Source of the DNA: Enterococcus phage ZJGS3
Length of the DNA: 64,000 bases
Sequence record: PV523736.1
Strand: one strand, 5' to 3'
Position numbers and translations under genes: made by a program
Notes under the pieces: generated by a model
The model's database searches: none
What the model was told of the DNA's origin: nothing
Seen by the model: the letters and a program-made list of their open reading frames with translations, nothing else
In this document: positions 18,358-20,563 of the stretch, in pieces
How positions within the stretch are numbered: position 1 is the first letter of the stretch
How the letters are laid out: the number at the start of each line of letters is the position of its first letter

Positions 18358-19890
18358 TTATTTAAGTGCTTCTTTTACAAAGTCGTATTCTGGTTTATTT
18401 AACACAGACAACATCATTTCTTCTGGGGAAGTAATTTCTCCGCCTAACACTTGTGTTAAGATGTTTGTGGAGAACCCAGATACTAAAGCTGTTCCTTTTT
18501 CGTCAAAACGTACAGGTGTATTATCATGACGAGAGTTTACATTCCAGAATACTACAGATGGTAACTCGTAACCTGCCTGTTCGAACTTAAGTTTTGCTTG
18601 TTCATAGTTAGTGTAACCTGCCACACCTTGGTCAAATTCCATATCGGAAATAATAACGATTTTTGAAGGTAATTCATTTTGTGGTGTGTGGTTTTTCACC
18701 GCAGTAGCTAAAATCAAGTCGAATACTTTTTGTAAATTTGTATTTCTAGCATTGTATGAACATTTATCATAAGCCTTCATCTTATCCATAAGTGTACCTG
18801 ACAATGGTAAATTTACTAAACGAGGTTGTTCAGAAAATACGATGAAATGACCTTTGAATGCGCCACTTAAGCGTTCCGCAGTGTAGATAGCTAAGCCTTC
18901 TGCAACTTCCCAAGGGGTAACATTTTCTGTACCACCCCATGTCATAGAACCAGAAGTATCCGCAACTACAATTGCATTATCTTCAATATCTTTCAACACA
19001 TCGTCCATAGATTTCCATGTTGCTTCCAATGAACGGTCTAATGTTCTGTAGTAACTTCTGCTACCATAAGCCCGAATTACTTCATGAGGTAACATGTTCT
19101 TTGCATTCATTTTTACTTCCCCAGATTCTACTTTAGAAAGTAAATCTTCATATTCGTCTGGCATGTGTAATTGCAAAGCTTTACGGTATTTGAACAATGC
19201 TTTAGAGGATACTTGGTTCAAATCAATCTTATGGTATTCCTTGCTTGCTAACCGAACTTCAATTACATTTAAATAATCACGTAATTTAGCAATCATTTTA
19301 CGATAACGAGTTAGACCTGCTTTACCTTCAAAACCTAAATAGTTAGCAATACGAGCACCTTGATTACGTTTCTTGCTATTTGGAGAACTTACATTAGCTA
19401 ACCATTTACCTAGTAATGATACAGGCTTACCTTCTGACATGTTTTTAATATCAGATGTTAGTTGGTTACCGATGATACGTGCACCTTCTGTATCCACAAA
19501 GTGAATACTACGTTTGTGTGCGTACTCCATAGTTTCAAATAAGTCTGTCCAACGACCAACATATGCCATGTACTCCATTAAAGTAACGATTACTTGCTTG
19601 TTTTGGTTACGACCATCCACTAAGTATTTGATTGCTTCTAGGTAAGCGGAACGTTCACCCAATCCACCTAAACGGATATTACGTAAGTGTACCAAATTGC
19701 GTAATGCTAACTCTGGGTTTTCATCGTAGGCTTTAGCAAACATGTTTCGTACATCTCCTAAACGACCACGCATAGCCCCTGCTTGTGCAAAGAAGTCTAA
19801 GTTAGCGTTTAAAGTTGATGTATAAGTTTTAGCTCCATTTTCTGTAGAACCAACAGTTGTTTCTTCTTTTAGGTTGTCTAAAAATGACAT
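18358..19890 (-). CDS. Ro60/TROVE-like protein with C-terminal vWA domain (Rsr-like)
   Basis: 510 aa; helical N-terminal region followed by vWA fold with MIDAS DxSxS (VVADTSGSM); size and architecture match Ro60 orthologues; own promoter 19932-19960. Confidence 0.5.
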   Translation of the reverse strand: MSFLDNLKEETTVGSTENGAKTYTSTLNANLDFFAQAGAMRGRLGDVRNMFAKAYDENPELALRNLVHLRNIRLGGLGERSAYLEAIKYLVDGRNQNKQVIVTLMEYMAYVGRWTDLFETMEYAHKRSIHFVDTEGARIIGNQLTSDIKNMSEGKPVSLLGKWLANVSSPNSKKRNQGARIANYLGFEGKAGLTRYRKMIAKLRDYLNVIEVRLASKEYHKIDLNQVSSKALFKYRKALQLHMPDEYEDLLSKVESGEVKMNAKNMLPHEVIRAYGSRSYYRTLDRSLEATWKSMDDVLKDIEDNAIVVADTSGSMTWGGTENVTPWEVAEGLAIYTAERLSGAFKGHFIVFSEQPRLVNLPLSGTLMDKMKAYDKCSYNARNTNLQKVFDLILATAVKNHTPQNELPSKIVIISDMEFDQGVAGYTNYEQAKLKFEQAGYELPSVVFWNVNSRHDNTPVRFDEKGTALVSGFSTNILTQVLGGEITSPEEMMLSVLNKPEYDFVKEALK

Positions 19891-19931
19891 CTGACATCTC
19901 TCCTTTGTATGGTAATGTTTTATCTAACACC

Positions 19932-19960
19932 ACTATAACATGTAATATTATGTAAGTCAA
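19932..19960 (-). promoter_or_regulatory. sigma-A-type promoter TTGACT-17-TATAGT for the rsr-like gene
   Basis: minus-strand GTGTTGACTT at 19955-19960 (+ coordinates), 17-nt spacer, TATAGT. Confidence 0.65.
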
Positions 19961-19971
19961 CACTTTTTGTA

Positions 19972-20003
19972 AATAAAAAACTCATCCGATTAAGAATGAG
20001 TTT
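19972..20003 (-). terminator. intrinsic terminator ending the tRNA-like ncRNA transcription unit
   Basis: 8-bp stem AAACTCAT/ATGAGTTT with 10-nt loop followed by U6 on the minus strand. Confidence 0.65.
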
Positions 20004-20143
20004 GTATGTAATATCAAGAACCACAGGCTTAATTAAATTCAATAGTTTTAATTTGTTAGTTGATTGCTGTAGGGTTCTTTATGCTCTGGCAACCTAAGAG
20101 GTTAGAGCTATGGCAAAATACCAAAACCTTTTTAATATGTAAC

Positions 20144-20261
20144 AAGAATCTATTTTATACGTTGCTCTACCAACTGAGCTACAGGAGGAATCATCCTCCC
20201 GGCAGGACTCGAACCTGCGACCCACGGCTCCATAGGCAATAAAAATTGCTGTTAGATTCTT
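20144..20261 (-). ncRNA. Y-RNA-like unit 1 with permuted tRNA-like domain
   Basis: T-arm GCAGG-TTCGAGT-CCTGC, then an 8-bp acceptor-like stem closed by a UGAU loop, then D-arm GCUC-AGUUGGUA-GAGC. Flanked by 7-bp stem AAGAAUC/GAUUCUU and conserved ACAGCAA bulge. Confidence 0.55.
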
Positions 20262-20324
20262 TATGTTCCGGCACCCATTAAGGATGGAACTATAGCTATG
20301 CTAAAACCGTTTTATTTATGTAAC

Positions 20325-20446
20325 AAGAACGCATTAACTTTAAGCTTTACCAATTAAGCTATACCACCAAGGGTGGCAGTTGGATTCGAACCAACAACTC
20401 ACATTTTGCAGATGTATTAGTTTTAAAAGTTTGCTGTGGCGTTCTT
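20325..20446 (-). ncRNA. Y-RNA-like unit 2 with permuted tRNA-like domain
   Basis: anticodon-like hairpin (loop CUGCAAA), T-arm GUUGG-TTCGAAU-CCAAC, a 7-bp acceptor-like stem closed by a 3-nt loop, and D-arm GCUU-AAUUGGUA-AAGC. Flanked by 7-bp stem AAGAACG/CGUUCUU that covaries with unit 1. Confidence 0.55.
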
Positions 20447-20510
20447 TATGTTCCGGCTACCTGTTAGGTTGGAACTATGACATATGTCAAAACCTTTTTA
20501 TCTTGTCTTT

Positions 20511-20539
20511 ATAATAGCATAAGCTATTTAAACTGTCAA
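20511..20539 (-). promoter_or_regulatory. consensus sigma-A promoter TTGACA-17-TATTAT driving the ncRNA locus
   Basis: perfect -35 and near-consensus -10 on minus strand. Confidence 0.65.
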
Positions 20540-20563
20540 GTATTAATTTAAATATATTGAAAC

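Follow-up and report, generated by a model that had tools for sequence, protein, structure and literature searches.

Ro60 proteins, which take up Y RNA at the outer surface of their ring and the ends of misfolded RNA in the cavity, are already known with Y-like RNAs from bacteria and from some phages that encode TROVE proteins. The Rsr/YrlA pairing of bacteria and mycobacteriophage (Chen et al. 2014, RNA 20:1715; Rfam RF02553) combines a protein made of a ring plus a von Willebrand factor A (vWA) domain with RNAs whose genes lie no more than a few hundred nucleotides away on the same strand, and the same arrangement is found in Enterococcus phage ZJGS3, of which we analysed a stretch of 64,000 nt (sequence record PV523736.1; hereafter, the window). 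There, the gene for a Ro60-like protein is preceded by an array of RNA units that share further features with YrlA: the RNA ends form a stem, the interior contains a T arm, an acceptor-like hairpin and a D arm, and there are several Y RNAs per locus, some without the tRNA-like domain (as YrlB). The two systems differ in that the window protein belongs to DUF2828/DUF7788 and not to TROVE, the RNAs score 36-46 bits against a YrlA gathering score of 69 bits, and a handle composed of an AGAC stem and ACAGCAA stands in place of the YrlA motif GNCGAAN0-1G. The RNAs linked to DUF2828 also differ from YrlA in carrying modular cargo (anticodon-like hairpins, native-order tRNA bodies, or none), and the Enterococcus clade has extra spacer hairpins. 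We consider it quite probable that a divergent Ro60/Y-RNA ribonucleoprotein, with RNAs that present parts resembling those of tRNA, is the product of the locus. The results presented below directly support the fold of the protein, the structures and covariation of the RNAs, and the tight, strand-specific and phylogenetically broad linkage of gene and RNA.

Other described systems are related to the locus in different ways. The Ro60 of Thermus phage phiLo, with its Yrl1 and Yrl2 RNAs (NAR 2025, PMC12135203; PDB 9KOP, 9L5Y), is an annotated TROVE protein, unlike the window protein; a bulge containing CGAA defines the phiLo RNAs, which have not been described as resembling tRNA, and an involvement of PNPase is not indicated for the window system. 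In the Rsr-Yrn1-PNPase complex of Deinococcus radiodurans (RYPER), whose logic we invoke below, a Y RNA tethers the Ro ring to an RNA enzyme and gates its cavity, although the order of tRNA-like arms differs and a tethered enzyme is known in RYPER only. Ro60/Rsr-like proteins encoded beside tRNA genes, as the window protein is, have been reported in the E. coli Felixounavirus Bas63 (gp130) and in a Listeria phage (CKA15_055). We infer that both belong to the family of the window protein, gp130 because of its position beside a tRNA array, as in Escherichia phage humlepung (see below), and because a Felixounavirus relative is among the matches of the window protein, and CKA15_055 because Listeria phages are among these matches. 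Bas63 gp130 counters the Ppl defence system, and the authors speculate that some annotated tRNAs may be Y RNAs (bioRxiv 10.1101/2024.10.10.617714). In the P100-like Listeria phage CKA15, highly transcribed non-coding regions lie up to 2 kb 5' of the homolog, and three such upstream regions are suggested, again speculatively, to be Y RNAs (PMC12282133). Y RNAs are guessed in both papers, and an RNA motif is defined in neither. A literature search (DUF2828, Ro-like with phage, Ro60 with anti-defence) yielded no description of the RNAs reported here and no paper joining DUF2828 with an RNA. Since only speculation was found for the DUF2828 family, handle motif, arrays and modular cargo all seem not to have been described before.

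The protein gene occupies positions 18358-19890 on the minus strand, behind a ribosome-binding site AGGAG read from the sequence (19904-19900), and encodes an N-terminal helical domain and a C-terminal vWA domain. The open reading frame (ORF) of 510 aa and its DTSGS motif (residues 311-315), which an earlier note on this DNA had pointed out, are both borne out. The MIDAS (metal-ion-dependent adhesion site) consists of D311-S313-S315...T384...D416, five residues that are invariant in 35 homologs, and several arginines and lysines of the helical half are invariant as well. Pfam assigns, each above its gathering score, DUF7788 (154.1 bits, cut-off 27.1, E 4.3e-45) and DUF2828 (94.5 bits, cut-off 29, E 8.5e-27; a comparison proposed in the earlier note), with VWA_2 as a weak match; both DUF families are present in all 35 aligned homologs. 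NCBIfam gave no match for the protein, and phmmer with the single sequence found nothing in the PDB. A confident AlphaFold2 model built from the alignment (pLDDT 90.6, pTM 0.90) was compared with the PDB in Foldseek, where six Ro60 structures were top-ranked with full-length matches (E 1e-7 to 5e-6). Relatives of the protein occur in 697 phage-collection records, including Felix O1-like coliphages, Listeria, Staphylococcus, Campylobacter and Vibrio phages and cluster L mycobacteriophages, and more than 7,000 related protein clusters were found. In most cases the family is annotated merely as 'RNA-binding protein' (also the label of PHROG 850), 'DUF2828' or 'hypothetical'; the label of the mycobacteriophage relatives is 'Ro-like RNA binding protein', that of a Listeria phage record 'putative ribonucleoprotein'.

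The source phage is an Enterococcus Schiekvirus (Herelleviridae), and phages ZJGS4 and GVEsP-1 are 100% identical to it across the studied region, which lies at the border of a minus-strand RNA gene cluster of 25 tRNAs, a tmRNA and a ROOL RNA. None of the 31 matching phage records carries an RNA annotation in the 586 nt 5' of the protein gene, and a few of them annotate small hypothetical ORFs there; the description of this ~500-nt unit as ORF-free in the earlier note is correct only in the sense that it contains no ORF longer than 60 aa. The promoter and intrinsic terminator proposed for it were both confirmed. The promoter TTGACA-17-TATTAT (20511-20539, minus strand), with a TG ahead of the -10 hexamer, agrees with the consensus at 11 of 12 positions and is kept in phage iF6, and the terminator (19972-20003, minus strand) has a 10-bp stem (20003-19978), a 6-nt loop and a U tract and is recovered in the minimum free energy (MFE) fold. 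Between these signals, 125-560 nt 5' of the Ro60-like gene and on the same strand, lie three tandem units, each closed by a stem of 7-9 bp (P1) that is followed by a single-stranded ACAGCAA. Two permuted modules had been predicted, and both are present at their coordinates within units 1 and 2; the count was incomplete, since a third unit (20079-20015) is also present. The enclosing stems, the ACAGCAA on their 5' side and the repeat hairpins are likewise all there. A promoter within each repeat was considered because of a TTGACA in spacer R1, and was ruled out since the scan found no matching -10 element.

Unit 1 (20324-20446, minus strand) is a complete permuted tRNA look-alike, identified by a Rfam YrlA match, a partial tRNA match (18.9 bits), its fold and covariation in an alignment described below (A4). 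Its P1 pairs AAGAACGC (20446-20439) with GCGTTCTT (20332-20325), the heptamer lies at 20437-20431, and there follow a hairpin resembling an anticodon arm (UACAU-CUGCAAA-AUGUG, 5 bp with the 7-nt loop CUGCAAA, 20416-20400), a T arm (20395-20379), a 7-bp acceptor-like hairpin (20378-20362) and a D arm (20359-20344). Because the anticodon-like hairpin takes the place of the anticodon arm, unit 1 is a whole tRNA cloverleaf, circularly permuted, with P1 inserted between the D and anticodon arms. Unit 2 (20143-20261, minus strand), a YrlA-like RNA found by the Rfam match, fold and A4 covariation, is closed by AAGAATCTA (20261-20253) paired with TAGATTCTT (20152-20144), carries ACAGCAA at 20252-20246 and contains a T arm (20218-20202), a 7-bp acceptor-like hairpin (20201-20182) and a D arm (20179-20164). 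Unit 3 (20015-20079, minus strand) is a handle-only Y-like RNA whose 41-nt insert is not tRNA-like; AAGAACC (20079-20073) pairs with GGTTCTT (20022-20016), ACAGCAA lies at 20070-20064 and a trailing G at 20015. The YrlA scores in Rfam were 35.8 bits (E 5e-6, at 20325-20418) for unit 1 and 45.9 bits (E 5.9e-9, at 20133-20246) for unit 2; unit 3 scored 28.3 bits (E 0.0013) with our own covariance model R1, described below. When folded individually, as the earlier note had proposed, units 1 and 2 show their modules in the MFE structure (z -3.25 and -4.30), and P1 of unit 3 is retained in its fold (z -1.67). An unconstrained fold of the whole 531-nt transcript recovers both enclosing stems, T arms, acceptor hairpins and D arms (z -3.42, 100 shuffles).

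When read directly, the acceptor-like stems of units 1 and 2 are exactly 7 bp, UGCCACC/GGUGGUA with the loop CUU and CGGGAGG/CCUCCUG with the loop AUGAUU, and U8-A9 and a canonical D arm containing G18-G19 come next in each; the T loops read UUCGAAU and UUCGAGU. The earlier estimate of 7-8 bp is corrected to 7 bp in both, with loops of 3 and 6 nt instead of 3-4 nt, the 8-bp stem with a 4-nt loop being an alternative pairing in unit 2. The succession of T arm, acceptor-like stem and D arm as the topology of YrlA, which the note had recognised, is supported by the YrlA matches obtained with Infernal and Rfam, the MFE folds and the covariation of the arms. The placement of the 3' half (T arm and 3' acceptor strand) before the 5' half (5' acceptor strand and D arm) is shared with the circularly permuted tRNA genes of Cyanidioschyzon merolae; in the window, however, the acceptor ends are joined by a loop of 3-6 nt without CCA or a processing spacer, an extra conserved helix (P1) stands between the D and anticodon arms, and no aminoacylatable tRNA is predicted.

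The units are separated and preceded by spacers of ~40 nt, each forming two hairpins: R1 at the 5' end of the transcript (20450-20488), R2 (20265-20302) and R3 (20083-20122), all on the minus strand. They were identified by alignment (A2 and A3 in the case of R3), covariation counts and folding, and the hairpins of R3 are UGGUA..UGCCA and GCUCU-A-ACCU..AGGU-UGCC-AGAGC. Among eight paralogous and orthologous copies, 95.7% of the cells are paired, compared with 31-50% in slid controls, and 9 of 12 pairs show compensatory changes, in agreement with the covarying repeat hairpins noted earlier.

A key question is whether such modules are selected RNA structures or functionless debris of the neighbouring array, that is, decayed or tandem tRNA genes in which a T arm and the D arm of the next tRNA mimic YrlA. 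The locus borders an array of 25 tRNAs, dimeric tRNAs are known to yield false YrlA matches (Chen et al. 2014, PMC4201824), and the modules give weak partial matches to the Rfam tRNA model. These matches (18.9 and 16.1 bits) lie below the 29-bit threshold, and ARAGORN calls no tRNA in 19900-20600, in line with the earlier view that the modules are not functional tRNA genes. The array also has its own promoter and terminator. To assess the structure itself, 29 YrlA-like units from the window, its relatives and distant phages were aligned with MAFFT without reference to structure (alignment A4). In total, 93.8% of the cells were paired, 24 of 25 pairs showed compensatory changes and 215 cells were doubly changed; none of 500 shuffles matched these values, and slid controls reached 33-45%. 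Pairing was 99% in the T arm, 95% in the acceptor hairpin and 96% in the D arm, three elements that had not been chosen for pairing when the units were collected. The strands between the T and D arms form a closed 7-bp hairpin in which all seven pairs covary, and the P1/ACAGCAA handle is kept across hosts of different phyla. The covariation largely refutes the explanation by decayed tRNAs, which we regard as extremely improbable.

Covariance model R1, built from A4, produced 74 further matches (E ≤ 1e-4) in 45 of 89 loci, every one of them on the gene strand. The cargo between the handle strands proved to be modular. Most inserts are 30-50 nt long. Among 114 distinct short ones, 27 have a hairpin whose stem is at least 5 bp long and whose 7-nt loop follows the pattern YU-NNN-R-N (mean 2.0 and maximum 7 in shuffles). 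In a larger insert set, CU-NNN-AA is the dominant type besides T loops, with the triplets UUU (15), GAA (7), GCU (6), UGA (6), GUA (4) and GUU (3). Long inserts follow one of two orders: the YrlA-like one, in which T arm, acceptor hairpin and D arm may be preceded by an anticodon-like hairpin, or the native one, with D arm, anticodon arm and T arm, where P1 stands in the place of the acceptor stem. A third form is a complete tRNA-like gene in which the anticodon arm is swapped for a closed P1 hairpin followed by ACAGCAA, an exact circular permutation of the topology in the window. Genes of this form, 103-122 nt long, were observed at 2379-2500 and 2706-2820 of locus L044, 2444-2558 and 2699-2813 of L080, 2638-2755 of L012 and 5406-5508 of L008; their acceptor, D and T arms are normal and the replacement hairpin reads nnnnUCUU-loop-AAGAnnnn. 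Rfam scores them as tRNAs, and annotation pipelines may record them as intron-bearing tRNAs. That one architecture is arrived at by two permutations is good evidence that handle and tRNA body together constitute a selected fold.

Another important question is whether the handle accompanies the DUF2828 gene outside the Enterococcus phages. Two independent sets of loci, all of them parts of contigs, were examined: 80 loci on viral contigs, surrounding DUF2828 homologs that mostly share 35-45% identity with the window protein, and 80 loci from bacterial genomes and metagenome-assembled genomes (MAGs), mostly of Clostridia. In the viral set together with Listeria phage A511 (81 loci), the gene strand had 341 occurrences of ACAGCAA and the opposite strand 31, with ~36 per strand expected by chance. 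Among the 337 scoreable sites of the 80 viral loci, 154 lay in the 750 nt before the start codon, 35 in the 500 nt past the stop codon and ~10 inside the 1.5-kb coding region. A perfect 7-bp closing stem was found within 170 nt at 53% of the sites, compared with 16.6% of random positions and 1 of 26 sites on the opposite strand, and 62 of 80 viral loci contained at least one closed unit. The bacterial and MAG set replicated this result: 267 sites were on the gene strand versus 46 on the other, 209 of them were closed, 130 fell within 500 nt upstream, and 73 of the 80 loci were positive. The sequences of P1 vary while complementarity is kept (AAGACAC/GTGTCTT, AAGGCGC/GCGCCTT, AGGAATC/GATTCCT, TAGACGC/GCGTCTA, GATACAT/ATGTATC and others), its G-U pairs occur in the gene-strand sense only, and the consensus of the handle is A-AGAC-NNNN / NNNN-GUCU-U, then G. 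The conservation and covariation in homologous phages by which the earlier note wished its modules to be judged are thus observed for P1, ACAGCAA and the tRNA-like arms in homologs and far beyond. All three window units fit the class, which is defined by its place next to DUF2828 on the gene strand and by the succession of a 7-9 bp stem strand, ACAGCAA, variable insert, complementary strand and final G. Three units are present in Listeria phage A511, four in an E. coli Felixounavirus, three in the cluster L mycobacteriophage Snenia and five in a Bacillus phage, and a Staphylococcus phage unit bears the variant ACAGCUA.

The units might be real RNAs in which the handle serves to punctuate or process phage tRNA arrays or is bound by a host factor, with DUF2828 as a mere neighbour. 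Units are interleaved with tRNA genes in several loci, and a reverse search bears on the same point: of 80 viral stretches with a match to AAGACACNNACAGCAA, 30 had GTGTCTT as the closing strand, and for 18 of these 30 closed units the retrieved DNA stretch contained no DUF2828 gene. Nevertheless, the gene was present for 12 of 30 closed matches against 2 of 50 unclosed ones, motif density drops steeply away from the gene in both independent locus sets, and the 9-kb tRNA array of the window is free of such units, all three of which lie within 600 nt of the gene; no bona fide P1/ACAGCAA unit besides these was found in the whole 64-kb window. We therefore judge a punctuation signal very unlikely.

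The layout of promoter, three repeats, terminator and gene also resembles type III toxin-antitoxin systems such as ToxIN, so that the array could be a cis-acting leader or regulatory RNA of the DUF2828 gene, or a repeat RNA that neutralises or titrates the protein and is not its scaffold. LeBron gp53, a homolog from a cluster L mycobacteriophage, is growth-inhibitory when overexpressed alone (PMC13148394), and Y RNAs gate the cavity of Ro60 (Chen et al. 2014, PMC4201824). In many phages, however, the units are located 3' of the gene or dispersed among tRNA genes and hence are not leaders, and in the window the protein gene has a promoter-like site of its own (TTGACT-17-TATAGT, 19960-19932, minus strand; 10 of 12 consensus positions). 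Furthermore, the protein has a Ro60 fold without a nuclease domain, unlike the endoribonuclease toxins of the ToxN type, and the tRNA-like cargo would be left unexplained. This alternative appears unlikely.

Several results weigh against the reading of the locus as a Ro60/Y-RNA system. Pfam TROVE (PF05731), with which the earlier note had proposed a comparison, gives no match to the window protein at E ≤ 1 or to the 35 family members at E ≤ 10, and a profile of the 35 homologs retrieves vWA proteins only, and no Ro60, from the PDB sequences. The 'Ro60-like TROVE-vWA protein' of that note accordingly keeps its Ro60-like character by fold (AlphaFold2, Foldseek) and MIDAS, and loses TROVE at the level of sequence; the link to Ro60 is made by comparison of the modelled fold alone. 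With Ro60 structures at the top of the fold search and the sequence routes failing, the protein has Ro60 architecture in a sequence family apart from TROVE. On the RNA side, Rfam at gathering thresholds gave no match in the array region in a scan of the whole window; the YrlA matches came from a permissive scan of 19850-20650, and both modules, while significant by E-value, remain below the YrlA gathering score. The motif GNCGAAN0-1G, conserved on the 5' strand of YrlA (Chen et al. 2014) and implicated in Ro60 binding, has no match in 19971-20510, where the sole CGAA is in a T loop; ACAGCAA occupies the equivalent position. YrlA is further defined by having a Ro60 ortholog on its strand no more than 4 kb away, which applies here only if a fold-level relative of Ro60 counts as an ortholog. 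The covariation of P1 is not fully independent evidence, since P1 was partly selected for pairing, and the pairing between handle and DUF2828 may not be exclusive in view of the 18 closed units without the gene in their stretches, which are only partial contigs. The spacer hairpins R1-R3 are limited to the Enterococcus-phage clade. The RNA arrays of phages 113, 163, Porthos and vB_Edu_21C1 share 98.7-98.9% identity with that of the window, whereas the protein of phage 113 is only ~81% identical, a contrast that could reflect recombination and not selective constraint. Finally, production and processing of the RNAs, their binding by the protein and the function of the particle are predicted. 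Given the absence of a TROVE match, the sub-threshold YrlA scores and the missing GNCGAAN0-1G, the locus is best placed as a divergent sister system outside the curated families. Permissive Rfam scans gave no credible match other than YrlA in the array and likewise left the units of nine other loci uncovered; a self-cleaving ribozyme was ruled out, as no ribozyme family matched in the window or these nine loci and the inserts are too variable.

For a divergent Ro60/Y-RNA particle, the following course can be proposed. The strong promoter would drive a ~530-nt minus-strand transcript (~20504 to 19975), which would be cut into three Y-like RNAs. The handle, P1 with the abutting ACAGCAA, may dock on the helical ring of the DUF2828 protein encoded directly downstream, by analogy with the conserved Y RNA stem on Ro60 (Chen et al. 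2014, PMC4201824; phiLo, PMC12135203). Between the handle strands, unit 1 presents a whole permuted tRNA body, unit 2 an elbow and acceptor as in YrlA, and unit 3 a plain hairpin. If Rsr-YrlA and Rsr-Yrn1 are a guide, the RNAs would control access to the protein ring, and they might tether it to enzymes that recognise the shape of tRNA, such as RNase P, the CCA-adding enzyme, modification enzymes, exoribonucleases or tRNA-targeting nucleases. The YrlA of M. smegmatis, whose acceptor stem has 7 bp, undergoes cleavage by RNase P and addition of CCA (Chen et al. 2014, PMC4201824), and the same 7-bp geometry makes both reactions plausible for the window units. The particle would act on the metabolism of tRNA or other structured RNA during infection, and its role could be RNA quality control or repair, or counter-defence.

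More tentatively, the arrays may present, on a Ro60-like platform, libraries of decoys that copy parts of tRNA (elbows, acceptor stems, and anticodon stem-loops with selected 'anticodons'). Such decoys would bind, sequester or misdirect host defence nucleases that target tRNAs, or would sense and repair cleaved tRNAs. We hold this to be possible, though doubtful, in view of the enrichment of CU-NNN-AA loops, the 'anticodon' of unit 1 that differs between near-identical phages, the habitual position of the gene beside tRNA arrays and the anti-defence phenotype of Bas63 gp130. If it were true, DUF2828 and its RNAs would be among the most widespread RNA-based anti-defence systems in phages.

Close relatives of ZJGS3 differ in the composition of the array. 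The anticodon-like loop of unit 1 is CUGCAAA (GCA) in the window and CUGAAAA (GAA) in phages iF6 and Ben (loci L086 and L088), the rest of the unit being identical. In both of these phages, units 1 and 2 flank a fourth one, X, whose T/acceptor/D insert is degenerate, and EfV12-phi1, PEf771 and EFGrNG probably carry it too, judging from an equally long (~740-nt) match. In phage A2, X is present and unit 1 absent, the reverse of the window phage. The heptamer of unit 2 is ACAGCGA in iF6 and A2. A metagenomic relative with 74% protein identity (L001) keeps the R hairpins and has at least five units.

A possible fourth partner RNA of the window (21425-21549, minus strand) is located inside the tRNA array, between tRNA-Pro and tRNA-Ala. 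It consists of a T arm, an 8-bp acceptor-like hairpin and a D arm within the closing stem GGACAGUG/CACUGUCC, and lacks ACAGCAA. This sequence, which was not part of the seed, matched model R1 at 21435-21549 (36.2 bits, E 2.9e-5; Rfam YrlA 28.4 bits, E 0.008; fold z -3.67), and an ortholog with a covarying closing stem is present at 153-257 of L001.

The RNA signature points to likely RNA partners for the whole DUF2828 family, accounts for unannotated gaps in phage tRNA arrays and flags tRNA-like chimeras that pipelines may call intron-bearing tRNAs. ACAGCAA, P1 and the cargo are concrete targets for binding and genetic work, and, with one family member reported to counter bacterial defence, the RNAs offer a direct route to its mechanism.

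Some individual loci deserve separate mention. Escherichia phage humlepung, a Felixounavirus like Bas63, has four unannotated units (L082, 4728-5490, plus strand) interspersed with annotated tRNA genes just 3' of a 'vWFA protein' gene; one of the four contains a YrlA-like insert. A contig labelled as a giant-virus MAG (L095, IMGVR_UViG_GVMAG-M-3300017963-53_000001) has three tandem short units at 157-714 on the minus strand, AAGACAC..ACAGCAA closed by GTGTCTT after 27-28 nt, with no DUF2828 gene within the 11 kb examined. Phosphoesterase-type genes adjoin DUF2828 in Enterococcus phage H1 (L089, calcineurin-like phosphoesterase) and Bacillus phage Thrax2 (L085, metallophosphatase). A gene labelled 'cyclic-phosphate processing receiver domain' is a further neighbour in H1. 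In the cluster L mycobacteriophage LeBron, genes for an RNA ligase and a polynucleotide kinase are located in other parts of the genome. Taken together, such gene contents hint at a context of RNA repair.

In Listeria phage A511, a ROOL-like RNA (L081, 1498-2049, plus strand; 87.5 bits, gathering score 99.1) with a consensus promoter lies ~1 kb 5' of DUF2828. In record coordinates it spans 26196-26747, which matches the non-coding region with the highest transcription in the near-identical phage CKA15 (26,236-26,727), taken by the authors of that study for a possible Y RNA, and at least one highly transcribed CKA15 region thus appears to be ROOL. The promoter scan of A511 found a strong promoter only for ROOL and none for the unit array, so that the support from CKA15 RNA-seq stays indirect. 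In the RNA gene cluster of the window itself, a phage tmRNA with the tag peptide AKNEELLAVA is located at 23255-23605, and a full-length ROOL RNA (260 bits) lies at 29071-29657 inside the tRNA array, both on the minus strand. Two Rfam tRNA matches on the same strand are not called by ARAGORN, one at 28974-29045 (43.4 bits) and one at 25645-25740 (33.3 bits), the latter of which, at 96 nt, may be an atypical tRNA or a tRNA-like RNA.

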